A DNA stretch of 11,825 nucleotides from a virus (Duplodnaviria > Heunggongvirae > Uroviricota > Caudoviricetes): positions 1-11,825 of IMG/VR virus record IMGVR_UViG_2778261009_000010; one strand, 5' to 3'. Within the stretch, counting starts at the first letter, position 1, and each line of letters opens with the position of its first letter. Below, piece by piece: positions 1-11,825 of this stretch. The notes beneath the pieces are model-generated. The model had not been told where the DNA came from. It searched no databases and was given only the letters and a program-made list of their open reading frames with translations. The position numbers and the translations under genes are program-made.

Positions 1-72
1 ATCCTGACTTTCCAGAACCATACGGACTGCCCGTTGACGGACTTCGGGGGAAAAACGAGTATTTTTAGTCAT
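1..72 (-). CDS. IS3-family transposase OrfA, N-terminal 24 codons only (5' partial, runs off the window)
   Basis: ATG is the complement of 70-72; translation MTKNTRFSPEVRQRAVRMVLESQD; preceded by GAGG-type RBS. The six-frame track missed it because it is truncated by the window edge. Confidence 0.7.
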   Translation of the reverse strand, partial: MTKNTRFSPEVRQRAVRMVLESQD

Positions 73-126
73 CCTGTTTACCTCTTTCTCAGGAAGTTTA
101 GTCTCCAGGATTCCCGGGGCGGTTCA
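1..126 (-). mobile_element. Left end of an IS3-family insertion sequence (IS629/IS1203-like), partial; the element continues beyond the window start
   Basis: Minus-strand sequence from position 126 reads TGAACCGCCCCGGGAATCCTGGAGACTAAAC..., i.e. begins with the 5'-TG typical of IS3-family terminal repeats, followed by an RBS (AAAGAGG) and an ORF starting MTKNTRFSPEVRQRAVRMVLESQ, which I recognise as the N-terminus of IS629-type OrfA. The ren reading frame ends abruptly at this boundary. Confidence 0.7.
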
Positions 127-312
127 GGTAGCAAATCGGTAATACACCGTTCGCCAGACCTTACCTTCGATAACCAGAAGACCTGCCCGTGCCATTTTAG
201 CCGCGGCCTGATTTATGCTGGTTACTGTTGCGCCTGTTAGCGCGGCAACGTCCGGCGCACAGAAGCTATTATGCGTCCCCAGGTAATGAATAATTGCCTC
301 TTTGCCCGTCAT
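124..312 (-). CDS. ren: Ren (lambda Rex-endurance protein), C-terminally truncated by the IS insertion: 62 aa retained of about 96; likely a pseudogene
   Basis: Translation MTGKEAIIHYLGTHNSFCAPDVAALTGATVTSINQAAAKMARAGLLVIEGKVWRTVYYRFAT matches the N-terminal two thirds of lambda Ren as I recall it. Its stop codon TGA (124-126) is formed by the first bases of the IS terminal repeat. Its ATG overlaps the P stop (ATGA), as in lambda. Confidence 0.75.
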   Translation of the reverse strand: MTGKEAIIHYLGTHNSFCAPDVAALTGATVTSINQAAAKMARAGLLVIEGKVWRTVYYRFAT

Positions 313-1010
313 ACACTTGCTCCTTTCAGTCCGAACTTAGCTTTGATTTCTGCGATCTTCGCCAGAGCCTGTGCACGATTTAGAGGTCTACCGCCCATGA
401 CAGGAAGTTGTTTTACTGGTTCAGGGATCGCCTCACCACGGTTAATTCTCGCAGTCATATGGACAAGCTCATCTGCGGCCTTACGGCGTAATTCCGCATC
501 AGTAAGCGCATTGGCCCGCATGTTCTGATACAGGTTGGTAACCAGCCAGTAGTGCGCGTTTGATTTCCACGGATAAGACTCCGCATCCGGATACAGGCCT
601 CGCTTCCGGCAATACTCGTAAACCATATCAACCAGCTCGCTGACGTTTGGCAGTCCGGCGATAACGGATGCTTCTTCCCGACACCATGCAACAAACTGCC
701 CGGGTGATGGCAGAAATGGTCGATTCTGCCGACGGGCTACGCGCATTCCTGCGTTAACCTGTTCCATTGTGGTGATCCCGTTTTCCCGGAAAGCCAGCAC
801 CCACTGGCGGCGGATTTCGTTCAGTTCGTTCTGGTCCCGGTTAGCCAGGCTCGCCGGGAAAGTTGCCAGTAACTGGCTGAACACACCATTGATGATCTGC
901 GCTACCTGCTGTACCTGCGGCTTTTCGTCGTACTGTTCCAGCATGTTGTTGGCGATCCGGCGCATCTGCTCACGGTCAAAGTTAACCATCTGTGCGGCGA
1001 TGTTTTTCAT
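309..1010 (-). CDS. P: Replication protein P (DnaB helicase loader), lambda type
   Basis: 233-aa translation (MKNIAAQMVNFDREQMRRIANNM...KFGLKGASV) is recognisably lambda P over its whole length; sits immediately downstream of O with overlapping stop/start. Confidence 0.95.
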   Translation of the reverse strand: MKNIAAQMVNFDREQMRRIANNMLEQYDEKPQVQQVAQIINGVFSQLLATFPASLANRDQNELNEIRRQWVLAFRENGITTMEQVNAGMRVARRQNRPFLPSPGQFVAWCREEASVIAGLPNVSELVDMVYEYCRKRGLYPDAESYPWKSNAHYWLVTNLYQNMRANALTDAELRRKAADELVHMTARINRGEAIPEPVKQLPVMGGRPLNRAQALAKIAEIKAKFGLKGASV

Positions 1011-1906
1011 AAATCCACCCCGTAAATCCAGTCAGTGTTTGTCAGGTCGAGTTTTGATTTTCCGGCTGTCACGCCAGCCTGTTGCTTGTTACGGTTGATT
1101 TCGAGTTGGGTCCACTTGTCGCGGAGTTTGGCCGGACTTAGCACGTTACCGGACCAGAAGTTGTCCTGGCATGCCCAGCGGAACAGCACGCACATGTCGC
1201 GGTGGTTACGTCCGTCACGTTCACGCATCAGGCGGATATCGTTAGCCCACCCAGCAAAATTCGGTTTTCTGGCTGATGGTGCGATAATCTTCACCATGTC
1301 AAACATCCACTCTGCGGCGGTCAGGTCTTCTGCTGTCCCCCACTTGCTGCCGCTCTGAATTGCAGCATCCGGTTTAACCACAGAAAGATCGTTTTCTGGC
1401 TGGTCAGAGGATTTGCCAGAATTCTCGGACGAATAATCTTTTCTTTTTTCTTTTGTAATAGTGTCTTTTGTGTCCCCCTGTTTTGAGGGATAGCAATCCC
1501 CCAATTTGAGGGATGTTTTATCCCTCGTTTTAGGGGATTTTCCCTCGTTTTGAGGGATACACCATTCTGAGATGTTTTTATTTGGTCCAAACATGCCGCC
1601 TTGCTGCTTGATAATATTCATTCTGACGAGTTCTAACTTGGCTTCATTGCACCGTTTGACGGGTAACTTTGTAATCTCGCTAAGTTGAGAATCGGTGATT
1701 CTGTCCATTGGTTTATTCCACCCATAGGTTTTACGCAGAATGGCAAGCAGCACTTTAAACTGTCGCTTGGTCAGATCTGCGCCCGAATAAGCCTCAAGCA
1801 GCATATTTGATAGTCTGGCGTAACCATCATCGAGATCTGCCACATTACGCTCCTGTCCGGCAAAGTTACCTCTGCCGAAGTTGAGTATTTTTGCTGTATT
1901 TGTCAT
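1007..1906 (-). CDS. O: Replication initiator protein O, lambda type
   Basis: 299-aa translation (MTNTAKILNFGRGNFAGQERNVADLDDGYARL...TDWIYGVDL) is recognisably lambda O; the coding sequence contains the ori iterons. Confidence 0.95.
   Translation of the reverse strand: MTNTAKILNFGRGNFAGQERNVADLDDGYARLSNMLLEAYSGADLTKRQFKVLLAILRKTYGWNKPMDRITDSQLSEITKLPVKRCNEAKLELVRMNIIKQQGGMFGPNKNISEWCIPQNEGKSPKTRDKTSLKLGDCYPSKQGDTKDTITKEKRKDYSSENSGKSSDQPENDLSVVKPDAAIQSGSKWGTAEDLTAAEWMFDMVKIIAPSARKPNFAGWANDIRLMRERDGRNHRDMCVLFRWACQDNFWSGNVLSPAKLRDKWTQLEINRNKQQAGVTAGKSKLDLTNTDWIYGVDL
1473..1558. repeat. ori-lambda iterons: four 19-bp O-binding repeats, flanked at 1428-1471 by the AT-rich unwinding region
   Basis: Four copies of a TCCCTC-n7-GAGGGA palindrome: 1473-1491 tccccctgttttgagggat, 1496-1514 atcccccaatttgagggat, 1520-1538 atccctcgttttaggggat, 1540-1558 ttccctcgttttgagggat. 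Adjacent T-rich stretch ttcttttttcttttgtaatagtgtcttttg lies downstream in the O reading direction, as in lambda. Confidence 0.9.
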
Positions 1907-1909
1907 AAT
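1881..1909 (+). promoter_or_regulatory. pO-like promoter for the oop antisense RNA
   Basis: -35 TTGAGT (1881-1886), 17-bp spacer, -10 CATAAT (1904-1909), reading away from O into the 3' end of cII. Confidence 0.5.
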
Positions 1910-1915
1910 GACTCC

Positions 1916-1992
1916 TGTGGATTGATCCAGTAGTTCCCTCAGAATTGCATATCAATTTGCTTAAAATCCTCGGTGGCAGCCGGGGATTTTTT
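1916..1992 (+). ncRNA. oop: oop-like antisense RNA (about 77 nt), antisense to the 3' end of the cII-like gene
   Basis: Starts about 7 nt after the pO -10 and ends at an intrinsic terminator: stem tcctcgg (1967-1973), loop tggcag, stem ccgggga (1980-1986, one G-U pair), then TTTTTT (1987-1992). Position, length and orientation match lambda oop. Confidence 0.55.
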
Positions 1993-2235
1993 CTTTGTGA
2001 TTTCATCAAGCGCATACTTAAAAGCCCTGCTAATCGGACTGATGTCTGATGCCATTCCGAAAGCACACAGGACCGAAGCAATAAACCGCCAGTCCGTTCT
2101 GCTTATCTTCGATTCATGACAGCCAATCATCTTTGCCAGACCGCGCTGGGTAATAGTTGACAGATTGATAAGTAAATCTGTTTCTGCGCGATCAACGTCA
2201 CGCTGTGATAGTTTGCTGTAACTTGTTCTTTCCAT
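1939..2235 (-). CDS. cII: CII-like transcriptional activator (lysogeny establishment), non-lambda allele
   Basis: 98 aa between cro and O; HTH-like segment LAKMIGCHESKISRTDWR; C-terminus KKKSPAATEDFKQIDMQF resembles lambda CII C-terminus (NKKRPAATERSEQIQMEF). Confidence 0.8.
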   Translation of the reverse strand: MERTSYSKLSQRDVDRAETDLLINLSTITQRGLAKMIGCHESKISRTDWRFIASVLCAFGMASDISPISRAFKYALDEITKKKSPAATEDFKQIDMQF

Positions 2236-2273
2236 TTCTTAAGATTTCCAATAGTGAATAGTTAGTTGAAAGG

Positions 2274-2291
2274 TATGCGTGGAAACGCATA
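2274..2291 (-). terminator. Hairpin between nutR and cII, possible tR1-like element
   Basis: Inverted repeat tatgcgt/acgcata with 4-nt loop; only a short U-stretch follows on the minus strand, so if functional it is probably weak or Rho-assisted. Confidence 0.25.
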
Positions 2292-2320
2292 TGGCCTTAG
2301 TTGGTCAGATATCTTGGGAC

Positions 2321-2367
2321 TCGCTTTTCAGCGACGTAGGACGAATGTCCGTTGTTACAAAGAGCGG
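2321..2367 (-). promoter_or_regulatory. nutR candidate (boxA plus two stem-loops) downstream of cro
   Basis: Minus strand reads cGCTCTTTgtAACAACGgacattcgtcCTACGTcGCTGAAAAGCga: a boxA-like GCTCTTT, then a short hairpin (ggac/gtcc), then a 5-bp stem with GAAA loop. Near-duplicate of the element upstream of N on the plus strand. Confidence 0.55.
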
Positions 2368-2373
2368 GGTTAC

Positions 2374-2601
2374 TTATGCTGCCAGAAGGTTCTTTTTGCT
2401 TATTTCAAGCAATTCGCTTGCTTGATATTTGCCACCAGAAATCTCTTCGATTTTTGAGGCGTATTTCGTTTTCCCAAAAAACTCAGTCTTAGGGAGGAAG
2501 CCGTTTTTGAGCCACTTATAGACAGCCCTTTCGCTAACTCCACAAGCCTTCGCAACTTCAGGGATGCCGACACCTTTAATCGGCTCATCAAGATTTTGCA
2601 T
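2374..2601 (-). CDS. cro: Cro-like HTH repressor, non-lambda allele
   Basis: 75 aa, first gene transcribed divergently from the cI-like repressor; HTH segment VAKACGVSERAVYKWLKNG. Confidence 0.7.
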   Translation of the reverse strand: MQNLDEPIKGVGIPEVAKACGVSERAVYKWLKNGFLPKTEFFGKTKYASKIEEISGGKYQASELLEISKKNLLAA

Positions 2602-2680
2602 AGGAATATCCCTTTTTCGTACTTTTAGTACGCATTATGGTTGAACTGAAAGTTTTTGCAAGTGCTTTAGTATCGTACTC
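2602..2680. promoter_or_regulatory. OR region: divergent pR / pRM promoters with operator-like palindromes
   Basis: Minus-strand pR candidate: -35 TTGCAA (2656-2661), 16-bp spacer, -10 CATAAT (complement of 2634-2639). Palindrome CGTACT-ttt-AGTACG (2618-2632) overlaps the predicted pR start; second palindrome AGTA-tcg-TACT (2669-2679) lies just upstream of the cI ATG. The cI ATG at 2681 has no Shine-Dalgarno, consistent with a leaderless pRM transcript as in lambda. Confidence 0.6.
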
Positions 2681-3391
2681 ATGGTTCAGAATGAAAAAGT
2701 GCGCAAAGAATTCGCCCAGCGGCTAGCGCAAGCCTGTAAAGAAGCTGGTCTTGATGAACATGGTAGGGGTATGGCCATAGCCCGTGCCCTTTCTCTTTCG
2801 TCCAAAGGCGTTAGCAAATGGTTTAATGCTGAGTCTTTACCGCGTCAGGAAAAAATGAATGCGCTTGCGAAATTTCTAAACGTTGATGTTGTTTGGCTTC
2901 AGCACGGCACTTCGTTAAATGGAGCGAATGATGAAGATAATACTCTTTCATTTGTTGGCAAATTAAAAAAAGGGTTAGTGCGCGTGGTTGGTGAGGCAAT
3001 TCTTGGTGTTGATGGTGCCATCGAGATGACCGAAGAGCGCGATGGGTGGCTCAAGATTTATAGTGATGATCCAGATGCCTTTGGTCTTCGTGTGAAAGGA
3101 GACAGCATGTGGCCCAGAATAAAATCAGGAGAATATGTACTCATTGAGCCTAACACCAAAGTATTCCCGGGGGATGAGGTGTTTGTCAGAACCGTTGAAG
3201 GACACAACATGATCAAGATTCTTGGCTATGACAGAGATGGAGAATACCAATTTACAAGCATCAACCAGGACCACAGGCCAATAACGTTACCTTATCATCA
3301 AGTAGCAAAGGTGGAGTATGTGGCTGGTATTCTGAAGCAATCTCGTCATCTGGATGACATCGAGGCAAGGGAGTGGCTGAAAAGTTTGTGA
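2681..3391 (+). CDS. cI: CI-like prophage repressor (N-terminal HTH, C-terminal S24/LexA-type autopeptidase domain), non-lambda immunity
   Basis: 236 aa; divergent from cro; C-terminal domain carries GDSMWPRIKSGEYVLIEP (Ser nucleophile motif) and a downstream MIKIL lysine, typical of LexA/CI family. Confidence 0.9.
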   Translation: MVQNEKVRKEFAQRLAQACKEAGLDEHGRGMAIARALSLSSKGVSKWFNAESLPRQEKMNALAKFLNVDVVWLQHGTSLNGANDEDNTLSFVGKLKKGLVRVVGEAILGVDGAIEMTEERDGWLKIYSDDPDAFGLRVKGDSMWPRIKSGEYVLIEPNTKVFPGDEVFVRTVEGHNMIKILGYDRDGEYQFTSINQDHRPITLPYHQVAKVEYVAGILKQSRHLDDIEAREWLKSL

Positions 3392-3468
3392 CTTCAAGTA
3401 CGCGACAAGCCCCGTCCTTCAGGGCGTGGTGGATGTCAAAATAACTTTAAATAACACACCACCAACAT

Positions 3469-3497
3469 TTAACACATTGAATTAAAAAACCTACAAT
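3469..3497 (+). promoter_or_regulatory. Candidate internal promoter upstream of the cargo operon
   Basis: -35 TTAACA (3469-3474), 17-bp spacer, -10 TACAAT (3492-3497) in the 110-bp AT-rich gap after cI. Pattern match only. Confidence 0.3.
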
Positions 3498-3502
3498 ATT
3501 TG

Positions 3503-3835
3503 ATGAGAGGCGTTATGGAACCGGTCAAAATTAAACCATCTGTGGATTATATTGAAACCTATGCGGACTTCGCTAGTTTTGCTCCACTACCGGGAGCGGA
3601 AAAAAATCTCATTTGTATACATTTTATCGCAAACAAGTCAATACCTGCGGTACTATCCCAAAATGATATACCAGATCAACCAGGTAGAGCGAATATGCAG
3701 ATAGGCTCTGTAAATGAACTCAATCAGCAATGCACTGTGATAATGCCAATGGCACAACTAAAGGCTCTTCAGGAGAATATAGTTCTTCTTTTCGAACAAT
3801 TAGAGGCACAAAACTCTAATGGAGCGAAGTCGTAA
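3503..3835 (+). CDS. Hypothetical small protein, first gene of the cargo operon in the rexA position (start ambiguous: ATG 3503 or ATG 3515)
   Basis: ORF in the same orientation as cI; GAGAGG (3505-3510) precedes ATG 3515; stop overlaps the next start (TAATG at 3833-3837). No resemblance to lambda RexA that I can recognise. Confidence 0.6.
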   Translation: MRGVMEPVKIKPSVDYIETYADFASFAPLPGAEKNLICIHFIANKSIPAVLSQNDIPDQPGRANMQIGSVNELNQQCTVIMPMAQLKALQENIVLLFEQLEAQNSNGAKS

Positions 3836-4518
3836 TGCAACAACCGGAAGAAGTAGGTGATTTAACTATTACTTACAAAACATCAAGTATTGTTAAACCA
3901 CTGCAAGTTTCCCTGAATAACGTTAATACTCGCGATTTCATGATGTTCATGGAAACAGCAAAAGGTAATCTGTTTTCTACGCCTATTTCCTCTTATTCAC
4001 CAAAAAACATGGTGGATGATGCGACCAATTCCCAGCTAACTGCTACAATCGTAGATAAAGGAGGGGTTGCCGATTGTAAAGGACAATCTAATGTTATCCC
4101 ACCGTACGAGGAAACTCCTATACAGGGAACCGCAATGTCCGATTTGAGCAGAAACGAAATACAGGCACTTCTGAAGGCAAATAAAGCTGAAGTGGATGCA
4201 GTGGCCTCAAAAATGCAGGCTGATATGGCCAAATGGCGTGAACTAATGGCTTCAGATATAAAGGAGATGAAGCATTTAGTTGTTACTCAGCACGAACAAA
4301 TCAACAGTCGTCTGGACATACAATCGAGTAGAATTGAGAGTGCCCTTGACTCCCAATCAAAAAAGATCGATGCAGCTCTTTCTGTTCAAGAGGCAAAGTT
4401 AGAAGGTAAGCTTAGTGATGTTAAGCTTGATATAATCAAATGGGCCCTTGGCTTGCCAGCATTAGCATTTGCTGTATATAAAATCTACGGATTGCTCTCT
4501 GGAGTCTCAACCCCCTAA
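3835..4518 (+). CDS. Hypothetical coiled-coil protein with a single C-terminal transmembrane helix (tail-anchored), second gene of the cargo operon in the rexB position
   Basis: 227 aa; residues about 105-200 are rich in heptad-like charged/hydrophobic pattern (EIQALLKANKAEVDAVASKMQADMAKWRELMASDIKEMK...); C-terminus WALGLPALAFAVYKIYGLL is a 19-residue hydrophobic segment; followed directly by a strong intrinsic terminator. Confidence 0.7.
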   Translation: MQQPEEVGDLTITYKTSSIVKPLQVSLNNVNTRDFMMFMETAKGNLFSTPISSYSPKNMVDDATNSQLTATIVDKGGVADCKGQSNVIPPYEETPIQGTAMSDLSRNEIQALLKANKAEVDAVASKMQADMAKWRELMASDIKEMKHLVVTQHEQINSRLDIQSSRIESALDSQSKKIDAALSVQEAKLEGKLSDVKLDIIKWALGLPALAFAVYKIYGLLSGVSTP

Positions 4519-4523
4519 TACAC

Positions 4524-4550
4524 ACCCGGCCTCAGTGCCGGGTTTTCTTT
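4524..4550 (+). terminator. Rho-independent terminator ending the cI / cargo operon
   Basis: Stem cccggc (4525-4530), loop ctcagt, stem gccggg (4537-4542), then TTTTCTTT (4543-4550). Confidence 0.7.
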
Positions 4551-4740
4551 GCCCAACGTTCGCCCACCTAAAAACACATAATCGATTGTATTTATTGAAA
4601 AACTGATAGATACAACTTGCTAAACAGTGCAACCCTGATCCCTGCCCCATCACCTTCATCCTCAACATTTACAAAAATAAAATACCTTATATATCAAAAC
4701 CATATCTCGAGGAAACGAATGAACAACAAAATTTCGTACT

Positions 4741-4790
4741 TATGGTTCTTGATTGTATCGAACCAATAGTTCATTATTATCACCATCAGC
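4741..4790 (+). promoter_or_regulatory. Putative OL / pL region
   Basis: TTTCGTACTTATGGTTC (4741-4757) repeats the TTCGTACTT...ATGGTT motif of the OR region. Candidate -35 TTGATT (4758-4763), 17-bp spacer, -10 CATTAT (4781-4786), about 35 nt upstream of the nutL candidate and about 180 nt upstream of N. Inverted repeat TGGTTC(n10)GAACCA (4752-4773) spans the -35. Confidence 0.4.
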
Positions 4791-4823
4791 AGGACGCTGG
4801 AAGCCAAACGGAACAGACTGGCA

Positions 4824-4870
4824 GGCTCTTTAAACAACGTCGAACTCTCGACTACGTGGCTGAAAAGCCA
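4824..4870 (+). promoter_or_regulatory. nutL candidate (boxA plus two stem-loops) upstream of N
   Basis: gGCTCTTTaAACAACGtcgaactctcgaCTACGTgGCTGAAAAGCca: boxA-like GCTCTTT (4825-4832), hairpin gtcga/tcgac (4839-4852), and 5-bp stem with GAAA loop (4857-4870). Matches the minus-strand element at 2321-2367. Confidence 0.55.
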
Positions 4871-4968
4871 GATCACCCAACCACATAAGCTGTGGGATGC
4901 AATGCCGAAGCAACCGTCTCAGGAGGAGCTTCGAGATTGCATCGCCAAAGTTTATTCGGGAGGAATCT

Positions 4969-5241
4969 ATGTCCAGAAAAACAAAATTTAAAGGCACCGC
5001 AGCTTCTCGCCGTAGAGCCCGTCGCGCAAATCTGCAAAGTCAGGAGGCGATCAGCTCCGACAAGCTACACAGACCAACCCCTTCACGAGTGGTCTTGCAA
5101 TGCAAGCGCAAACCAGCAATGAGAGCAGAAGTTATAACTCTGACAACGTTGACCAGAAAATATGAAGGTTCAACTTGTCTTCCGAACGTAGCTCTTTACG
5201 CGGCAGGCTACCGGAAATCAAAACAACTGACGGCGAGATGA
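4969..5241 (+). CDS. N: N-like transcription antiterminator (P22 gene 24 / phage 21 N type) with arginine-rich motif
   Basis: RBS GGGAGGAA (4958-4965) then ATG 4969; 90 aa MSRKTKFKGTAASRRRARRANLQ... with N-terminal arginine-rich RNA-binding motif; C-terminus VALYAAGYRKSKQLTAR resembles the P22 gene-24 protein C-terminus as I recall it. The track ORF 4897-5241 is an upstream extension of the same frame. Confidence 0.8.
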   Translation: MSRKTKFKGTAASRRRARRANLQSQEAISSDKLHRPTPSRVVLQCKRKPAMRAEVITLTTLTRKYEGSTCLPNVALYAAGYRKSKQLTAR

Positions 5242-5257
5242 TAAATTAATTTGCTAA

Positions 5258-5839
5258 TTACTTGTTTTTGCCATGCTTATCCTGAGCGATAAGTTCATCC
5301 ATAAGACTGTCTTTCTTCCCAGCAAACCTAATGTAGCACTCATTTCTATAGCGTTCCGGGATAACAAAACGGTCGATTTCAGGATATCCAGTAGCAGAAG
5401 GTACCCGAATAAGAAGCCCTTTTTCGAGCAATGAGATTGCTTCAGGGCTTCCCTTTTCTGTCTTTAGCTGGTTATTAGCGGCTACAGCGAATGCCAAATA
5501 CGCTCTTTCTCCAAGAGTTAACGAATCAAACAAATCTTGCACGTATTTCTCTTCTTTAGATTTGCGCTTCTGAGCAGCGAATATCTCAATTCTTTCAGTC
5601 ACAGCGTGATAAGCGGAATTAACAACGCCGTTAAGCACATAGCTAACGCAAAACAACAGGATGTAATACATCCAGTAATGAGGAAGGATTTCTGGATTAT
5701 GCAGGTTTATCCATTCTTTTACGCTTACAGGCATAACAATAATCAATATGATCAGGATGATTAGCATATGAATCAACTGTTTAAGTGTCATTCCTTGCAG
5801 GAAAAAATGCATTAGTTCCTGCCACCATGAGTTGTTCAT
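5258..5839 (-). CDS. sieB: SieB-like superinfection exclusion membrane protein
   Basis: 193 aa, convergent with N, same position and orientation as lambda sieB relative to N/ea10; two N-terminal hydrophobic helices (LIHMLIILIILIIVMPVSV; HYWMYYILLFCVSYVLNGVV). Confidence 0.6.
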   Translation of the reverse strand: MNNSWWQELMHFFLQGMTLKQLIHMLIILIILIIVMPVSVKEWINLHNPEILPHYWMYYILLFCVSYVLNGVVNSAYHAVTERIEIFAAQKRKSKEEKYVQDLFDSLTLGERAYLAFAVAANNQLKTEKGSPEAISLLEKGLLIRVPSATGYPEIDRFVIPERYRNECYIRFAGKKDSLMDELIAQDKHGKNK

Positions 5840-6053
5840 CGGCGTTTCTCTTTTGCTCTCTGTAGGGGTGAATAGAGTTTATCCGATTTCTCGCTGTAGG
5901 GGTACACGAGAACCACCGAGCCTGATGTGGTTAAAAGACAGGCATACTAATAAACACTGCACTGTGTATTCATTCCAACGAGTGAATACACTGAGCAATG
6001 TCGCTCGTAACTAAACAGGAGCCGACTTGTTCTGATTATTGGAAATCTTCTTT

Positions 6054-6079
6054 GCCCTCCAATGTGAGGGCGATTTTTT
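6054..6079 (+). terminator. Rho-independent terminator upstream of ea10 (tL2-like position)
   Basis: Stem gccctc (6054-6059), loop caatgt, stem gagggc (6066-6071), then GATTTTTTA. Confidence 0.6.
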
Positions 6080-6099
6080 ATCTGTGAGGATATGAATAG

Positions 6100-6468
6100 A
6101 TGTCAAACATCAAAAAATACATCATTGATTACGACTGGAAAGCATCAATAGAAATTGAAATCGACCATGACGTAATGACAGAGGAAAAACTTCACCAGAT
6201 TAATAATTTCTGGTCAGACTCTGAATACCGACTCAATAAACACGGCTCTGTATTAAATGCTGTATTAATCATGCTGGCGCAACATGCTCTGCTTATAGCA
6301 ATTTCAAGCGACTTAAATGCATATGGTGTTGTGTGTGAGTTCGACTGGAATGATGGAAATGGTCAGGAAGGATGGCCTCCAATGGATGGTAGCGAAGGAA
6401 TAAGAATTACCGATATCGATACATCAGGAATATTTGATTCAGATGATATGACTATCAAAGCCGCCTGA
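6100..6468 (+). CDS. ea10: Ea10-like protein of the lambda pL operon
   Basis: 122 aa; RBS GTGAGGA (6084-6090); size and position upstream of cIII as in lambda. Sequence identity to lambda Ea10 is from memory and not verified. Confidence 0.8.
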   Translation: MSNIKKYIIDYDWKASIEIEIDHDVMTEEKLHQINNFWSDSEYRLNKHGSVLNAVLIMLAQHALLIAISSDLNAYGVVCEFDWNDGNGQEGWPPMDGSEGIRITDIDTSGIFDSDDMTIKAA

Positions 6469-6492
6469 GCGCGGCGTTACCGCATACCAATA

Positions 6493-6518
6493 ACGCTTCA
6501 CTCGAGGCGTTTTTCGTT
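6493..6518 (+). terminator. Terminator-like hairpin between ea10 and cIII
   Basis: Stem acgcttc / gaggcgt (one G-U), loop actc, followed by TTTTCGTT. Confidence 0.35.
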
Positions 6519-6540
6519 ATGTATAAATAAGGAGCACACC

Positions 6541-6705
6541 ATGCAATATGCCATTGCAGGGTGGCCTGTTGCTGGCTGCCCTTCCGAATCTTTACTTGAA
6601 CGAATCACCCGTAAATTACGTGACGGATGGAAACGCCTTATCGACATACTTAATCAGCCAGGAGTCCCAAAAAATGGATCAAACACTTATGGCTATCCAG
6701 ACTAA
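6541..6705 (+). CDS. cIII: CIII (inhibitor of FtsH-mediated CII degradation)
   Basis: Manual translation from ATG 6541 (RBS AAGGAG 6529-6534): [54 protein letters not shown], 54 aa, which I recognise as lambda CIII. Below the 60-aa cutoff of the ORF track. Confidence 0.9.
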   Translation: MQYAIAGWPVAGCPSESLLERITRKLRDGWKRLIDILNQPGVPKNGSNTYGYPD

Positions 6706-6817
6706 ATTCACTATCGCCACTTTTATTGGCGATGAAAAGATGTTTCGTGAGGCCGTCGACGCTTATAAAAAATGGATATTAATACTGAAACTGAGATCAA
6801 GCAAAAGCATTCACTAA
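6674..6817 (+). CDS. kil: Kil (host cell-division inhibitor)
   Basis: 47 aa [47 protein letters not shown], the C-terminal part of track ORF 6548-6817; overlaps the cIII 3' end and the gam 5' end as in lambda. Confidence 0.85.
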
Positions 6818-7188
6818 CCCCCTTTCCTGTTTTCCTAATCAGCCCGGCATTTCGCGGGCGATATTTTCACAGCTATTTCAGGAGTTCAGCCATGAACGCT
6901 TATTACATTCAGGATCGTCTTGAGGCTCAGAGCTGGACGCGTCACTACCAGCAGATCGCCCGTGAAGAGAAAGAGGCAGAACTGGCAGACGACATGGAAA
7001 AAGGTCTGCCCCAGCACCTGTTTGAATCACTCTGCATCGATCATTTACAACGCCACGGGGCCAGCAAAAAAGCCATTACCCGTGCGTTTGATGACGATGT
7101 TGAGTTTCAGGAGCGCATGGCAGAACACATCCGGTACATGGTTGAAACCATTGCTCACCACCAGGTTGATATTGATTCAGAGGTATAA
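6772..7188 (+). CDS. gam: Gam (RecBCD inhibitor)
   Basis: 138 aa [29 protein letters not shown]...[10 protein letters not shown], recognisably lambda Gam. Confidence 0.95.
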
Positions 7189-7193
7189 AACGG

Positions 7194-7979
7194 ATGAGTA
7201 CAGCACTCGCAACGCTGGCTGGGAAGCTGGCTGAACGCGTCGGCATGGATTCTGTCGACCCACAGGAACTGATCACCACTCTTCGCCAGACGGCATTTAA
7301 AGGTGATGCCAGCGATGCGCAGTTCATCGCATTGCTGATCGTCGCCAACCAGTACGGCCTTAATCCGTGGACGAAAGAAATTTACGCCTTCCCTGACAAG
7401 CAGAACGGCATCGTTCCGGTGGTGGGCGTTGATGGCTGGTCCCGTATCATCAATGAAAACCAGCAGTTTGATGGCATGGACTTTGAGCAGGACAATGAAT
7501 CCTGCACATGCCGGATTTACCGCAAGGACCGCAATCATCCGATCTGCGTTACCGAGTGGATGGATGAATGCCGCCGCGAACCATTCAAAACCCGCGAAGG
7601 CAGAGAAATCACGGGGCCGTGGCAGTCGCATCCCAAACGGATGTTACGGCATAAAGCCATGATTCAGTGTGCCCGTCTCGCCTTCGGATTTGCTGGTATC
7701 TATGACAAGGATGAAGCCGAGCGCATTGTCGAAAATACCGCATACACTGCAGAACGTCAGCCGGAACGCGACATCACTCCGGTTAACGATGAAACCATGC
7801 AGGAGATTAACACTCTGCTGATTGCCCTGGATAAAACATGGGATGACGACTTATTGCCGCTCTGTTCCCAGATATTTCGCCGCGACATTCGCGCATCGTC
7901 AGAACTGACACAGGCCGAAGCAGTGAAAGCTCTTGGATTCCTGAAACAGAAAGCCACTGAGCAGAAGGTGGCTGCATGA
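7194..7979 (+). CDS. bet: Bet (Red-beta single-strand annealing recombinase)
   Basis: 261 aa [37 protein letters not shown]..., recognisably lambda Bet. Confidence 0.95.
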
Positions 7980-8656
7980 CACCGGACATTATCCTGCAGC
8001 GTACCGGGATCGACGTGAGAGCTGTCGAACAGGGGGATGATGCGTGGCACAAATTACGGCTCGGCGTCATCACCGCTTCAGAGGTTCACAATGTGATAGC
8101 AAAACCCCGCTCCGGAAAGAAATGGCCTGACATGAAAATGTCCTACTTCCACACCCTGCTTGCCGAGGTTTGCACCGGTGTGGCTCCGGAAGTTAACGCT
8201 AAGGCACTGGCCTGGGGAAAACAGTACGAGAACGACGCCAGAACCCTGTTTGAGTTCACTTCCGGCGTGAATGTTACTGAATCCCCGATCATCTATCGCG
8301 ACGAAAGTATGCGCACCGCCTGCTCTCCCGATGGTTTATGCAGTGACGGCAATGGCCTTGAGCTGAAATGCCCGTTTACCTCCCGGGATTTCATGAAGTT
8401 CCGGCTCGGTGGTTTCGAGGCCATAAAGTCGGCTTACATGGCCCAGGTGCAGTACAGCATGTGGGTGACGCGAAAAGATGCCTGGTACTTTGCCAACTAT
8501 GACCCGCGGATGAAGCGTGAAGGCCTGCATTATGTCGTGGTTGAGCGGGATGAAAAGTACATAGCGAGTTTTGACGAGATGGTGCCGGAGTTCATCGAAA
8601 AAATGGACGAGGCACTGGCTGAAATTGGTTTTGTATTTGGGGAGCAATGGCGATGA
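7976..8656 (+). CDS. exo: Exo (lambda exonuclease, Red-alpha)
   Basis: 226 aa [50 protein letters not shown]..., recognisably lambda Exo; start overlaps bet stop (ATGA). Confidence 0.95.
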
Positions 8657-8811
8657 CGCATCCTCACGATAATATCCGGGTAGGCGCGATCACTTTCGTC
8701 TACTCCGTTACAAAGCGAGGCTGGGTATTTCCCGGCCTTTCTGTTATCCGAAATCCGCTGAAAGCCCAGCGGCTGGCTGAGGAGATAAATAATAAACGGG
8801 AGAGTGTATGA
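8653..8811 (+). CDS. Small hypothetical protein (52 aa), translationally coupled between exo and the 250-aa ORF
   Basis: Manual translation from ATG 8653 (overlapping the exo stop): [52 protein letters not shown]; its stop overlaps the next ATG (ATGA at 8808-8811). Too short for the ORF track. Confidence 0.5.
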
Positions 8812-9560
8812 TTCATTTTCACGGTGGTCCAATAACTCCCGATACCTGTGCGTTGAAAGCCTGGAAAGGCAGACACGCATTCATCAGTTTTGCTAATCCA
8901 GCTCAGATTGATCTGGCTTCCGAAGTCACCCAATCATTTGCTCTTGATAATGGTGCATTCACATTCTGGACAAAAAACAAGGCCGTAGACTGGAATGAAT
9001 ATTACAGATTTGTTGAACGCTGGGGCAATCACCCTCGTTTCTCATTCGCGGTTATCCCGGATGTTATCGGCGGAACCAGTGAAGAGAATGACGCCCTGAT
9101 TGCGGCATGGCCTCACGGTAAATTTATTGGTGCTCCGGTGTGGCACATGAACGAACCAGATGAGCGATTTATTCGTCTGTGCCATGAGTTTCCCCGCGTC
9201 TGCATCGGCTCGATGGGGGAATACGATGCAAAACGACCGAGAGCGTGTCGGGCTAAACTACGCGATCTTATACGTCATGTTGTAGATCAGTACGGCTACC
9301 CAATCACCAAGATTCATGGGTTACGGATGTTAAATAAAGACATTTTTACTCATGTACCGCTTTCGTCTGCAGACAGCACGAACGTCGCAAGAAATATAGG
9401 CATCGACAAATCCTGGGTAGGTTCGCCATATGCTCCCGCAAGTAAAGAAACCCGTACGCAAGTTCTTGTGGAACGCATTGAATCATTCAACAGTGCCAGT
9501 TCACTTAATTACAACGCTGAACGGGACGTCTTTACCCCTCAACTGGCATTCGAAGTGTGA
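8808..9560 (+). CDS. Hypothetical protein (250 aa), accessory gene downstream of exo
   Basis: Long ORF in the operon orientation, start coupled to the preceding small ORF. Not any lambda protein I can recognise. Confidence 0.75.
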   Translation: MIHFHGGPITPDTCALKAWKGRHAFISFANPAQIDLASEVTQSFALDNGAFTFWTKNKAVDWNEYYRFVERWGNHPRFSFAVIPDVIGGTSEENDALIAAWPHGKFIGAPVWHMNEPDERFIRLCHEFPRVCIGSMGEYDAKRPRACRAKLRDLIRHVVDQYGYPITKIHGLRMLNKDIFTHVPLSSADSTNVARNIGIDKSWVGSPYAPASKETRTQVLVERIESFNSASSLNYNAERDVFTPQLAFEV

Positions 9561-9567
9561 GGCCAAT

Positions 9568-9783
9568 ATGACAATAGAACATAATAACGCCCTTCGCAGT
9601 ATTGCCCGTCAGGCTAATTCTGAAATCAAAAAAGCCAGACAGCAGTTTCCGGATAAAAACGTCGATGACATTTGCCGTAGCGTACTGAAGAAGCACCGCG
9701 AAACGGTAACGCTGATGGGATTCACACCGACTCACTTAAGTCTGGCAATCGGCATGTTAAACGGCGTTTTTAAGGAACGGTGA
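9568..9783 (+). CDS. Hypothetical protein (71 aa)
   Basis: ATG 9568 preceded by GAGG (9559-9562), 7 nt after the stop of the 250-aa ORF; MTIEHNNALRSIARQANSEIKKARQQFPDKNVDD... The track ORF 9430-9783 is an upstream extension that overlaps the preceding gene and is unlikely to be the real start. Confidence 0.6.
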   Translation: MTIEHNNALRSIARQANSEIKKARQQFPDKNVDDICRSVLKKHRETVTLMGFTPTHLSLAIGMLNGVFKER

Positions 9784-9805
9784 ACATGAAAAGCAAAATC
9801 ATCAG

Positions 9806-9826
9806 GGAGCTACAGGCTCCTTTTTT
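9806..9826 (+). terminator. Weak terminator-like hairpin
   Basis: Stem ggagc (9806-9810), loop tacag, stem gctcc (9816-9820), then TTTTTT (9821-9826). Short stem. Confidence 0.3.
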
Positions 9827-9881
9827 ATTATTCGCATTCACCCTCAAGCGTATTAACCAACAATTCAGGGATTAATGAAAG

Positions 9882-10103
9882 ATGGCAGACATCATTGATT
9901 CAGCATCAGAAATTGAAGAATTACAGCGCAACACAGCAATAAAAATGCGCCGCCTGAACCACCAGGCTATATCTGCCACTCATTGTTGTGAGTGTGGCGA
10001 TCCGATAGATGAACGAAGACGCCTGGCCGTTCAGGGTTGTCGGACTTGTGCAAGTTGCCAGGAGGATCTGGAACTTATCAGTAAACAGAGAGGTTCGAAG
10101 TGA
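9882..10103 (+). CDS. TraR/DksA-family C4 zinc-finger protein (lambda Orf73-like RNA polymerase-binding factor)
   Basis: 73 aa with CxxC-x17-CxxC (CCECGDPIDERRRLAVQGCRTCASC), the DksA/TraR zinc-finger signature, and the size of TraR-type proteins. Confidence 0.8.
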   Translation: MADIIDSASEIEELQRNTAIKMRRLNHQAISATHCCECGDPIDERRRLAVQGCRTCASCQEDLELISKQRGSK

Positions 10104-10255
10104 GCGAAATTAACTAGAAGTCAAAGATAAAATCATCGCTGAGCAGGAGAAAATCGCTAACGGAGAAAAGACAGTAAGTCAGTATATGAAAACCGCATGA
10201 TATCATCAGATAAAAATCGATCGTAAAGCGAAATATTCATACCAGAATAAACGAG

Positions 10256-10279
10256 TCGAGGTAAATTATATTACCTCGA
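10256..10279 (-). terminator. Hairpin downstream of the minus-strand membrane-protein gene, possible terminator
   Basis: Perfect 9-bp inverted repeat tcgaggtaa / ttacctcga with 6-nt loop, 35-60 nt past the stop of the 10314-10916 gene; the following minus-strand sequence is only moderately U-rich. Confidence 0.35.
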
Positions 10280-10313
10280 TAAATTAACTAAAACTTGCCC
10301 GCTATATACTATC

Positions 10314-10916
10314 TCATTCAGTATCATCACGCGTGGTCTGTGCATATGTCACTACCGCACCTAATGTATTAATTTTCTTTTCAACATAGATAATATTATC
10401 GTACTCATAATTGCCATACGGATAGCAAATGCGAATATCCTCATGTAGATCGGGGTCATCCACCTCAGCTCCAGAACAACTTTTTGAACTACCGGAAGTA
10501 TACCGATACGGTGCAACATAAGACGATGTCTCTCCAGGCAAAAAATAAGTTAGTGTTGTAAGGGGTATAATCAGAAAAAATCCAGAAAATATGCATATCC
10601 CTGCATAAACCTTAAGGTATGCTGACAGACTCTTCCAGCCGCTTTGTTTTACTATCCCCTTCTTAACCCAAAACAGAGATAACAGAAAAGCTATTCCCAT
10701 GCTAAACAGAATGTAATAGTGGGATATACTCTGATTAAGAAACGTGACCCTGTAGATATCTGCCCGCCACCAGAAGAAAAGGAAAATAAAGATCAGCCCT
10801 GAAACTGTCATGCAAATCAAATAAGGATACGAATCTTTTTTCATGTTTAGCGCCCATAAAATTTTTCCTGCCCCGGACAAATTTACCATCCATTTTTTGC
10901 GCAGAAAATAGCTCAT
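10314..10916 (-). CDS. Hypothetical integral membrane protein (3-4 predicted TM helices), low-GC moron on the opposite strand; start uncertain (ATG 10916 or internal ATG 10844)
   Basis: 200 aa with hydrophobic segments YLICMTVSGLIFIFLFFWW, YYILFSMGIAFLLSLFWV, ICIFSGFFLIIPLTTLTYFL and a roughly 60-aa hydrophilic C-terminal domain; coding sequence visibly more AT-rich than the lambda-type genes; opposite strand to the surrounding operon. Confidence 0.7.
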   Translation of the reverse strand: MSYFLRKKWMVNLSGAGKILWALNMKKDSYPYLICMTVSGLIFIFLFFWWRADIYRVTFLNQSISHYYILFSMGIAFLLSLFWVKKGIVKQSGWKSLSAYLKVYAGICIFSGFFLIIPLTTLTYFLPGETSSYVAPYRYTSGSSKSCSGAEVDDPDLHEDIRICYPYGNYEYDNIIYVEKKINTLGAVVTYAQTTRDDTE

Positions 10917-11087
10917 TACTTACTGCACAATAATACACAAAATTGCGTAAATTTTTTGCATGGATTTTAGCTCTTTCAGCCGACATTTAAGGGGTAAAGA
11001 GCATTTCCTAAAAGCAACTGACCAACCCAACAGAATGGGCTACCGCTTACGTTGAGAGCAAAAAAGTGTATAGCAGCAATGAACAGC

Positions 11088-11116
11088 ATCCTCGCACTGA
11101 CGAGGATTTCTTTTAT
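11088..11116 (+). terminator. Rho-independent terminator with no obvious upstream plus-strand gene
   Basis: Stem atcctcg (11088-11094), loop cactga, stem cgaggat (11101-11107), then TTCTTTTAT. Confidence 0.6.
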
Positions 11117-11157
11117 CTGAACTCGCTACGGCGGGTTTTGTTTTATGGAGACAAGAA

Positions 11158-11502
11158 ATGTCAGATTTGGCTATGAAGGTTTTGAAATGGCAATCAACTG
11201 GCGATGTCGGCATCAGTAGCGCAACTCTTGCCTCAATCGCATGTGGCCTGAAAAAGAATATCTATGGTCATCACTTCGGCGCTCCCCATGACGCAGCAGA
11301 CTTTCGGCGATGCGTTGCACTTGTTGAGCAGATTCCAGAAATCAGAGATTCATTCGACAAGGTTGCAAAGCGCGTTCCGGCATTCAAAGGAATCCTCAAC
11401 GAATGGGATTCACTCGTTGCTCTGTTGAAGTCTGAAATGAAGACGTACGGGAACAAAGCACCAGAGACTTACAGAAGAATCAGCGAGCTACGCAAGGACT
11501 AA
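11158..11502 (+). CDS. Hypothetical protein (114 aa)
   Basis: ORF with GGAGA (11145-11149) upstream of ATG 11158; followed by a hairpin gcctca/tgaggc at 11506-11524. No recognised family. Confidence 0.7.
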   Translation: MSDLAMKVLKWQSTGDVGISSATLASIACGLKKNIYGHHFGAPHDAADFRRCVALVEQIPEIRDSFDKVAKRVPAFKGILNEWDSLVALLKSEMKTYGNKAPETYRRISELRKD

Positions 11503-11624
11503 CCCGCCTCACACTCGATGAGGCCTGTTCATTTCTCAAGATATCCAGACCTACCATTGCTGCATCAATGCGGCTTTTTATTGCCTGATTTGCAGGTTCG
11601 ATTCCATATTCGGAGATAGCACTC

Positions 11625-11825
11625 ATGCAACACGAACTACAACCTGATTCACTGGTTGATTTGAAATTCATCATGGCTGATACTGGCTTCGGTAAGACCT
11701 TCATCTATGACCGGATTAAGTCCGGCGACCTGCCTAAAGCCAAAGTTATCCACGGACGAGCAAGATGGTTATATCGTGACCATTGTGAATTCAAAAATAA
11801 GCTCTTAAGCCGCGCCAATGGGTAA
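11625..11825 (+). CDS. AlpA-family DNA-binding protein, probable excisionase (Xis) preceding an integrase beyond the window
   Basis: 66 aa; MerR-like winged HTH pattern typical of AlpA/Xis proteins (LVDLKFIMADTGFGKTFIYDRIKSGDLPKAKVIHGRARWLYRDHCEFKNKL); GGAGA RBS upstream; located where xis sits in lambdoid phages (distal end of the pL operon). Confidence 0.75.
   Translation: MQHELQPDSLVDLKFIMADTGFGKTFIYDRIKSGDLPKAKVIHGRARWLYRDHCEFKNKLLSRANG

Follow-up and report, generated by a model that had tools for sequence, protein, structure and literature searches.

A two-gene cassette exchanged between the repressor and N genes of lambdoid prophages: a candidate phage-exclusion module built on a CCDC90-like membrane protein

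Introduction

What is the role of a pair of small genes inserted between the repressor and the antiterminator genes of a lambda-like prophage, on the strand of the repressor? The question is raised by a stretch of 11,825 nucleotides (nt), positions 1 to 11,825 of the IMG/VR viral record IMGVR_UViG_2778261009_000010 (hereafter the window), which corresponds to the early region of a lambdoid Escherichia coli prophage in inverted orientation with respect to the lambda map. An original prediction, made from the letters of the sequence alone, had proposed that positions 3503–4550 contain a two-gene cargo operon in the place where lambda carries rexA and rexB, and that this operon could be a phage-exclusion or defense module of unknown type.

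One classic means by which prophages earn their maintenance is the possession of repressor-linked exclusion genes such as RexAB, the 933W kinase and BstA. Many lambdoid phages carry accessory genes, mostly exclusion genes, on the transcript that starts at the repressor-maintenance promoter (pRM), and those co-transcribed with cI include RexAB, the operon of which is expressed from pRM in lambda lysogens, the tyrosine kinase of 933W, by which HK97 infection is aborted, and Hex of phage 434 (PMC3564112).

The analysis described here leads us to read the region as a self-contained accessory cassette, horizontally exchanged in the repressor-proximal slot of a lambdoid prophage, and we tentatively regard a lysogen-expressed, two-component phage-exclusion module of the abortive-infection type as its most likely identity, both function and mechanism being proposed from sequence comparison and analogy. 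The kind of element to which it would belong, a repressor-linked accessory or exclusion cargo in the hotspot between cI and N, is well known; its components, and the modular design in which a small partner is combined with a tail-anchored coiled coil, were not described in the literature searched.

Results

The gene pair lies in a recurrent slot inside the immunity region

The two open reading frames (ORFs) are found on the plus strand. Gene 1 (3515–3835) encodes a protein of 106 amino acids (aa), the small variable partner of the pair, and gene 2 (3835–4518) encodes a tail-anchored coiled-coil protein of 227 aa with similarity to the CCDC90/DUF1640 family. The ORF of gene 1 opens at TTG 3500 and ATG 3503; the ATG at 3515 is preferred as the start because it is preceded by the Shine-Dalgarno (SD) sequence GAGAGG (3505–3510), all homologues start equivalently and the Prokaryotic Genome Annotation Pipeline (PGAP) makes the identical call. 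The stop codon of gene 1 (TAA, 3833–3835) and the start codon of gene 2 (ATG, 3835–3837) share one base in the sequence TAATG, so that the overlap foreseen for the two genes is indeed present at 3833–3837.

The left backbone flank of the slot is a cI-type repressor of 236 aa (2681–3391, plus strand), identified by Pfam matches to Peptidase_S24 (E = 4.9e-16) and HTH_3, by phrog_4 and by its PGAP annotation as a LexA family regulator (WP_002431456.1). The right flank is the N antiterminator gene (4897–5241, plus strand; the PGAP start is equivalent to 4969), recognized by both PGAP and the Pfam family N_peptide (PF25694, E = 5.4e-32). Putative right operators (OR) with the sequences CGTACT-TTT-AGTACG and CGTACT-CAT-GGTTCA are placed at 2618–2632 and 2674–2688, the second one overlapping the cI ATG at 2681, and putative left operators (OL) with the sequences CGTACT-TAT-GGTTCT and TCGAACC-AAT-AGTTCA at 4735–4749 and approximately 4758–4773. 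These assignments come from reading of the sequence and from repeats common to the two regions (families D6 and D8 on the OR side). The operator repeats occur both between cro and cI and upstream of N, which places the gene pair inside the immunity region, between cI and the OL/pL region, as had been proposed; the leftward promoter pL presumably lies within the putative OL region (4735–4773) and is directed towards N.

Slot and strand are thus those of rexA-rexB, with the same succession of cI, two genes, terminator, OL/pL and N, and the spacing is close to that of lambda: 123 nt separate the cI stop from the first gene (112 nt in lambda) and 216 nt separate the last gene from OL (173 nt in lambda). 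The pair is also more AT-rich than its surroundings, as had been noted, although the difference is modest, with a GC content of 0.37–0.42 for the pair, 0.43–0.46 for cI and 0.51–0.55 for the regions of O/P and bet/exo.

The limits of the insertion could be defined by blastn alignment with six prophages or phages that have the same flanks and carry other cargo (L019, L020, L021, L022, L023 and L030). All left alignments stop at 3396, and the right alignments resume at 4523/4524 with the exception of L023, in which they resume at 4516. The left junction (3396|3397) therefore falls 5 nt past the cI stop codon (3389–3391) and the right junction (4523|4524) at the first base of a terminator stem, which delimits the cargo to 3397–4523 (plus strand), composed of a leader, gene 1 and gene 2. 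These junctions are common to at least six different cargos, and together with the spacing they bear out the assignment of the locus to the rex slot. A sequence at 3388–3402 (GTGACT-TCA-AGTACG) spans the left junction, and its right half is a perfect match to that of the OR operator CGTACT-TTT-AGTACG; this is probably a chance resemblance, since half of the sequence is cargo.

Transcription signals of the cassette

The cassette includes its own leader of 118 nt, in which comparison between loci revealed no conservation except at the SD region. No terminator was predicted in the interval between the cI stop and gene 1 (3392–3514), in line with the original prediction. A hairpin at approximately 3404–3437 (plus strand; −15.1 kcal/mol, z-score −1.24) was considered both as a terminator and as a regulatory RNA and was discarded in both roles, since it has no U-tract, its z-score is about −1.2 and it has no Rfam match. 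A candidate sigma-70-like promoter (TTAACA-17-TACAAT, 10 of 12 positions) is located at 3469–3497 (plus strand), 17 nt upstream of the ATG of gene 1.

Downstream of gene 2, the strong intrinsic terminator that had been anticipated is present at 4524–4553 (plus strand; z-score −2.4), with a 7-bp stem (six GC pairs, 4524–4543) followed by the T-run TTTTCTTTG. The same terminator is kept beside the DUF1828, XhlA-like, PD-lambda-2-like and other cargos; being common to all cargo variants, it belongs to the phage backbone and not to the cargo. It would be the counterpart of the terminator that closes the lambda rex operon.

Other cargos exchanged at the same position

The survey of the occupants of the cI–N interval suggested in the original prediction returned an exact slot with at least six cargos, one of them PD-lambda-2-like. 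This last one is found in E. coli 15.03CC, whose prophage encodes a cI protein (WP_002431456.1) and an N protein identical to those of the window, and it consists of a HigB-like toxin, an Xre-type protein and a third gene (PADLOC PD-Lambda-2_A, E = 6e-43; PD-Lambda-2_B, E = 4e-50; PD-T4-9_C, E = 2.5e-11). In experiments, PD-lambda-2 gave protection against lambda-vir through abortive infection (PMC9519451). The other occupants are a DUF6978 and DUF1828 pair with a weak match to the PADLOC candidate PDC-M24 (L020), a 120-aa and 42-aa pair (L021), a 299-aa membrane protein (L022) and, in E. coli PK5 (L023, 1708–2503), a 145-aa beta-rich protein followed by a 123-aa XhlA-like tail-anchored coiled-coil protein that matches the XhlA Pfam family (PF10779) below threshold. 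Stx2a-converting phages with the same cI type, which show about 97.6% nucleotide identity to the window over the cro-cI flank, carry a DUF3024 and NYN-domain pair (L030, Stx2_11Y11, 1290–2636). NYN has a PIN-like nuclease fold, and DUF3024 plus NYN constitutes another uncharacterised two-gene candidate.

The presence of a relative of a validated system, PD-lambda-2, in the same slot and the literature on exclusion genes of the pRM transcript provide a substantial prior for a defence role of the pair, which is still only a prior.

Conservation and distribution of the pair

Homologues of the pair with 50–65% aa identity, in which gene order and overlap are kept, were found in metagenomic Enterobacteriaceae prophages and in Klebsiella, Enterobacter and Yersinia, and a more distant version is present in Providencia. 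The nonsynonymous divergence (dN) ranges from 0.26 to 0.53 across the homologue comparisons; synonymous divergence (dS) is saturated in all pairs but one (dS 1.67, dN/dS 0.32). From this comparative record both ORFs can be taken as genuine genes, co-translated and under purifying selection. The pair is absent from 50,697 deposited phage genomes, as judged by megablast and by tblastn with either protein, so the match of gene 2 to a PHROG family (see below) must stem from prophage-derived members.

A total of 44 loci with a gene 2 relative were analysed, a set that was not de-replicated and in which several loci are copies of one prophage; in 37 of these 44 a co-oriented S24 repressor ends at most 1,500 nt upstream of the gene 2 homologue start. 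The gap between both genes is mostly 290–760 nt (1,247 nt in one case), which generally fits a small partner and little else. The repressors (212–251 aa) and the replication modules (O/P, O/DnaB, DnaT/IstB-like) vary from locus to locus, and the pair is kept beside them in Escherichia, Klebsiella, Enterobacter, Yersinia and Providencia. The remaining loci are free-standing pairs away from prophage immunity regions, located for example beside phoQ in Serratia fonticola or beside an insertion sequence (IS) element and a RelE-like gene in Xenorhabdus; five loci (L024–L028) contain the pair with no adjacent repressor. These free-standing copies indicate that the gene pair is autonomous.

Gene 2 is predicted to be a CCDC90-like tail-anchored coiled-coil protein

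The gene 2 protein matches phrog_14825 (E = 8e-129), a family of unknown function, and the Pfam family CCDC90-like/DUF1640 (PF07798) with 28.1 bits (E = 2.1e-6) over residues 106–214, a score below the gathering cut-off of 33.5. This sub-threshold match is seen in 27 of 30 gene 2 relatives (E ≤ 0.01; best 6.9e-7), and recent PGAP runs label gene 2 "CCDC90 family protein". Members of PF07798 include MCUR1, CCDC90B and yeast Put6/Put7. Prokaryotic members have reportedly been noted by Hartmann et al. in 2016 and by Adlakha et al. in 2019. To our knowledge, no function is known for any of these prokaryotic proteins.

An AlphaFold (AF2) model of the protein, built on a 30-sequence alignment, together with the conservation along that family, allows the division of the chain into five parts. 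The N-terminal domain (residues 1–47; 3835–3975) is predicted to adopt a beta-beta-alpha fold, modeled for residues 7–46 with a predicted local distance difference test (pLDDT) score of 85–89. It is connected to the rest of the protein by a poorly conserved linker (residues 48–100; 3976–4134), predicted as disordered (pLDDT 35–44) and represented by variable alignment columns. The head helix starts at Met101 and includes the sequence LKANKAEVD (residues 113–121), this part (4135–4197) comprising invariant or near-invariant columns from E108 to E136. The coiled-coil stalk (4198–4431) follows, and the chain ends with a hydrophobic anchor at about residues 200–224 (IIKWALGLPALAFAVYKIYGLLSGV), conserved in the family, a 3-residue tail and the stop codon (4432–4518). 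In the model, one continuous helix extends from residue 103 to residue 221, with pLDDT values of up to 95 at its start.

The anchor is the sole hydrophobic segment of the protein (Kyte-Doolittle KD19 maximum of 1.49, residues 196–222), which agrees with the single C-terminal helix originally described for the larger protein. The model thus predicts a single C-terminal inner-membrane helix, with the bulk of gene 2 facing the cytoplasm and few residues (about 3–5) in the periplasm.

Conservation in the family is highest in the stretch MSDLSRNEIQALLKANKAEVDAVAS-M---MAKWRE. The beta-layer consensus of DUF1640 proteins has been described as [aliphatic]-A-T-K-[polar]-[DE] (PMC4786415). The near-invariant L-K-A-N-K-A-E-V-D of gene 2 (residues 113–121), placed at the head-stalk junction, fits A-x-K-x-E, with N in the place of T and A in the place of the polar residue. 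The periodicity of the stalk is that of a hendecad (11/3): the Fourier power at period 3.67 was exceeded by none of 2,000 shuffles and no signal was obtained at 3.5, the heptad period. Four clean 11-residue repeats are evident at residues 155–198 (4297–4428), namely INSRLDIQSSR, IESALDSQSKK, IDAALSVQEAK and LEGKLSDVKLD. Hendecad repeats also occur in amphipathic helices that bind lipid surfaces, and the stalk might lie on the membrane instead of standing as a coiled coil.

The likeness to CCDC90/DUF1640 proteins comprises the succession of head, neck, stalk and C-terminal anchor, with a Pfam match that covers the anchor, and the non-heptad stalk; the A-N-K-A-E sequence, at the place of the A-T-K-x-[DE] beta-layer, only approximates that motif. 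On the other hand, gene 2 differs in its sub-cut-off score, in the additional N-terminal beta-beta-alpha domain and disordered linker, in being prophage-borne and in having a dedicated small partner. We read gene 2, from sequence and model, as a divergent prokaryotic member or a close analogue of the head-neck-stalk-anchor CCDC90 architecture.

Structure-directed comparisons added little to this assignment. A profile search of gene 2 against all PDB sequences gave only a spurious coiled-coil match (E = 0.45), and no match to the model was obtained by Foldseek in the PDB, a single long helix carrying too little information. Against PADLOC-DB v2.0.0 the only match was HEC-07 (E = 0.009), an artefact of the coiled-coil stretch.

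The methionine that precedes the head helix (Met101; 4135–4137) is retained in nearly all relatives. In short homologues from Xenorhabdus and Providencia alcalifaciens (L025, L026 and L027), in which this codon has the gene's strongest or nearly strongest SD sequence, it probably serves as the true start, and the N-terminal domain and linker thus resemble an addition to an ancestral core. A short isoform produced from an internal start at Met101 of the window was also considered; the SD sequence there ranks no higher than the top 13% of codon positions, and such a start has little in its favour. In three Klebsiella loci (L010–L012) gene 2 is split into a 60-aa ORF for the N-terminal domain and a 163-aa ORF in which the core is intact, and in one of them (L010) gene 1 is disrupted as well; these copies are either decaying or a naturally two-piece version.

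Gene 1 and the exchange of small partners

The gene 1 protein is acidic (pI 4.75) and soluble. In its AlphaFold model a beta-strand and a long beta-hairpin precede the C-terminal helix (beta3-alpha); similarity to COMM is weak, and the folds to which it may be closest are the beta3/4-alpha dimerisation units of the COMM domain, PUR and Whirly proteins. Foldseek against viral models gave an uncharacterised siphovirus protein as the best match (E = 1.5e-3). No match to gene 1 was obtained in Pfam, NCBIfam, PHROGs or PADLOC. The label DUF3467, which UniRef gives to a distant Providencia relative (P0050), was rejected after hmmscan of 13 and then 10 further members of the gene 1 family, P0050 included, at E ≤ 10 and E ≤ 1 produced no match.

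The head-stalk-anchor core of gene 2 is constant among the loci, and the upstream partner belongs to one of at least three types. The gene 1 type is the commonest and includes a chain of weakly similar proteins of 92–102 aa. Type B partners have 143–172 aa. The third type, zinc-ribbon-like, comprises proteins of 106–118 aa with a CxxC...CxxC motif, encoded just upstream of the CCDC90-like gene in three IMG/VR contigs (L043, L046 and L052) and unrelated to both gene 1 and type B. Comparison of the loci thus shows gene 2 as the constant membrane element, to which gene 1 and at least two other kinds of small partner can be joined interchangeably. The 145-aa slot protein of PK5 has homologues (E about 1e-8 to 1e-9) in the type B partners of short CCDC90-like genes; since type B proteins pair with either CCDC90-like or XhlA-like proteins, partners and membrane proteins recombine in a combinatorial exchange. 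The second pair type and type B partners were noted at L023 (PK5), L013, L024, L025 and L040.

The N-terminal domain of gene 2 goes with one type of partner. A hidden Markov model (HMM) of this domain detects it only at loci with a gene 1-type partner, with which it co-occurs in 20 of 20 loci, and the short gene 2 forms that do not have the domain have other partners. Gene 1 and the N-terminal domain are not duplicates of each other, since hhalign gave a probability of homology of 0.6%.

Discussion

Comparison with known systems

The closest parallel in organisation is lambda RexAB, in which a soluble protein is likewise followed by a membrane protein. The parallel does not extend to the proteins: the several hydrophobic segments of the polytopic RexB contrast with the one C-terminal anchor of gene 2 and its cytoplasmic coiled coil of about 200 residues, and RexA is a cytoplasmic sensor of 279 aa, compared with the 106 aa of gene 1. 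Homology of either gene with Rex was ruled out by BLAST and HMM tests, as the original prediction had expected. PD-lambda-2 (Vassallo et al. 2022) shares the exact cassette position and the format of a small multi-gene operon with overlapping genes, and it differs in being composed of unrelated proteins (a HigB-like toxin, an Xre-peptidase and a P4-antitoxin-like component). XhlA-type proteins (PF10779) resemble gene 2 in combining a short coiled coil with a single C-terminal transmembrane segment, and a member is found in the same slot of PK5. They differ in the absence of the conserved head and beta-layer-like motif of gene 2, and at E ≤ 1 the Pfam matches of gene 2 did not include XhlA. Lysis cassettes, and not immunity regions, are the known setting of XhlA. 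In the literature searched, no study was found on the function of prophage DUF1640/CCDC90 genes or of XhlA-like genes of the slot. The description of the module as one of unknown type is correct insofar as it belongs to no PADLOC or Rex family, and has to be amended for gene 2, which is a divergent CCDC90/DUF1640-like protein.

Weight of the exclusion reading and of its alternatives

The reading of the cassette as an exclusion module draws on its position, on the exchange with defence cargo and on the partner swapping, and several results weigh against it. The HMMs of the gene 1 and gene 2 families score near zero against RexA, for which BLASTP gives E > 4, and no similarity to RexB was found; neither gene belongs to any PADLOC-DB v2 family and neither matches a solved structure by sequence. 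The promoter-like site in front of gene 1 has to be seen against a number of sigma-70-like sites in the region that is not above chance (5 found, 6.1 ± 2.6 expected by shuffling). The anchor of gene 2 is only moderately hydrophobic (KD 1.49), its eukaryotic relatives are scaffolds and not pore formers, and the contact between gene 1 and the N-terminal domain is one that we infer solely from their co-occurrence. The distribution is narrow as well, given that the complete pair at ≥99% identity is present in 40 of 5,426 complete E. coli genomes, and gene 2 relatives in 6 of 185,579 species representatives, all of them Enterobacterales. The gene 1 family is likewise small, with 18 representatives when 1.84 billion proteins are clustered at 50%. 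Finally, a defence role assigned by slot position is only probabilistic, and genes of the slot can act otherwise, as illustrated by 434 Hex, which also inhibits the RecA-mediated cleavage of the repressor (PMC3564112).

This last example is the basis of the alternative that deserves most attention, in which the pair would be an accessory of prophage or host physiology, modulating lysogen stability or induction in the manner of Hex or altering, as a membrane scaffold, some complex of the host membrane, in the way that the eukaryotic CCDC90/MCUR1 proteins scaffold complexes of the inner membrane. That genes cotranscribed with cI are not always pure exclusion genes (PMC3564112), that the only named relatives of gene 2 are scaffold proteins and that almost none of its residues are exposed to the periplasm would all be in agreement with such a role, and the close physical association of the pair with S24 repressors of diverse specificity (37 of 44 loci) could reflect a functional connection with the biology of the repressor. 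We nevertheless consider it unlikely: genuine defence cargo takes the place of the pair in a prophage that is otherwise identical, the pair occurs with no adjacent repressor at L024–L028, so that cI is not needed, and a constant membrane protein combined with changing partners is what sensor-effector systems typically show. The predicted inner-membrane location of gene 2, at a presumably lysogen-expressed position of a prophage that already has the membrane exclusion gene sieB, could also point to a non-abortive superinfection exclusion, with DNA entry or an early membrane step blocked without killing as with P22 SieA, T4 Imm or HK97 gp15. This appears improbable, since ejection proteins act in the periplasm, into which only some 3–5 residues would extend, every conserved part (head, stalk, N-terminal domain and soluble partner) is cytoplasmic, and a cytoplasmic two-component design is better suited to sensing after entry.

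The coupling of two small genes by the TAATG overlap and the acidic nature of the partner are features that a toxin-antitoxin-like addiction module would show, with gene 2 as membrane toxin, gene 1 as antitoxin, stabilisation of the prophage or island as its effect and no dedicated anti-phage role; non-prophage copies adjoin RelE-like and IS genes, and the PD-lambda-2-like cargo of the same slot is derived from a toxin-antitoxin system. Such a module would be atypical in its partner-first order and in its long scaffold-like "toxin", and the Klebsiella copies with a broken gene 1 or N-terminal domain keep the core gene, which is unexpected if the antitoxin were essential. Moreover, the toxin-antitoxin-like modules of this slot act in defence anyway, so that this explanation, which we judge quite improbable, overlaps with the exclusion reading. 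The architecture of gene 2 is also like that of XhlA-type tail-anchored coiled coils, and the XhlA-like gene in the PK5 slot could suggest a lytic-cycle function, as an accessory of lysis or membrane remodelling similar to PBSX XhlA that is located in the immunity region by chance. Here the position is contrary: between cI and OL, on the cI strand and upstream of pL, the genes would be read with the repressor and not from the early or late lytic transcripts, and with no XhlA Pfam match in gene 2 this role is highly improbable.

Proposed mechanism and implications

The sensor/effector idea put forward at the outset fits a constant membrane protein with a swapped small partner of at least three unrelated types, and it can be extended, with considerably less confidence in each individual step than in the defence reading as a whole, to the following model of an exclusion module. 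Transcription would be provided by read-through from pRM or the promoter for repressor establishment (pRE), which is proposed because no terminator follows cI, by the promoter-like site of the cassette itself, or by both, and would end at the backbone terminator. Oligomerisation of gene 2 would take place through its beta-layer-like motif and the hendecad stalk, and a trimer is the probable form, by extension from MCUR1 and CCDC90B of the CCDC90/DUF1640 family. The beta3-alpha fold is typical of obligate dimerisation units, and gene 1, as a dimer, would dock on the tethered N-terminal domain of gene 2, where it would either sense a component of the invading phage or keep gene 2 silent. Infection would then displace or alter the partner, and the clustered anchor helices might disturb the membrane, or another membrane-proximal block might be imposed, so that the infected cell would no longer support phage growth and the infection would be aborted. 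This scheme parallels the logic of RexA-RexB with unrelated parts, and also that of XhlA- or holin-like tail-anchored proteins.

A broader proposal, which we regard as conceivable and rather doubtful, is that the pair founds a new prophage-borne anti-phage family in which a constant prokaryotic effector of the CCDC90/MCUR1 type (DUF1640) is armed by interchangeable small sensors (gene 1-type, type B or zinc-ribbon). If true, the prokaryotic branch of a family whose conservation reaches into mitochondria would gain its first function, and the pair would define a modular class of small partner plus tail-anchored coiled coil that would include the XhlA-like pairs of the same slot. The cassette would add a mechanistically different member to the repressor-linked exclusion genes, made of proteins with no characterised bacterial relatives, and would offer a tractable bacterial model for CCDC90/DUF1640, the mitochondrial members of which (MCUR1, CCDC90B) remain a matter of debate. 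Testable predictions on the component that determines specificity follow from the exchange of partners beside an unchanging membrane protein. Independently of function, the slot extends from 5 nt past the cI stop to the backbone terminator, and its junction sequences can be used as anchors for mining lambdoid prophages.

Other features of the window

The remaining genes of the window agree with a lambdoid early region. On the minus strand, to the left of cI, are located P (309–1010), O (1007–1906), cII (1939–2235) and a cro-like gene (2374–2601). Immediately beyond N, the superinfection-exclusion gene sieB (5258–5839, minus strand; Pfam E = 1e-25, phrog_1301) lies beside the slot, so that the prophage has at least one further exclusion function. 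At 6528–6586 (plus strand), Rfam family RF01804 identifies the lambda cIII RNA thermometer (88.5 bits), which confirms a lambda-type early left operon; gam, bet and exo are also present. Between exo and the end of the window, the plus-strand ORFs at 8808–9560, 9430–9783 and 11158–11502 (250, 117 and 114 aa, respectively) match no Pfam family. A 200-aa ORF on the minus strand (10314–10916), which also has no Pfam match, contains several hydrophobic segments and coincides with the most AT-rich part of the window (GC 0.36–0.39); it is possibly another moron or accessory membrane protein. A 73-aa ORF at 9882–10103 encodes a DksA/TraR-type zinc finger.

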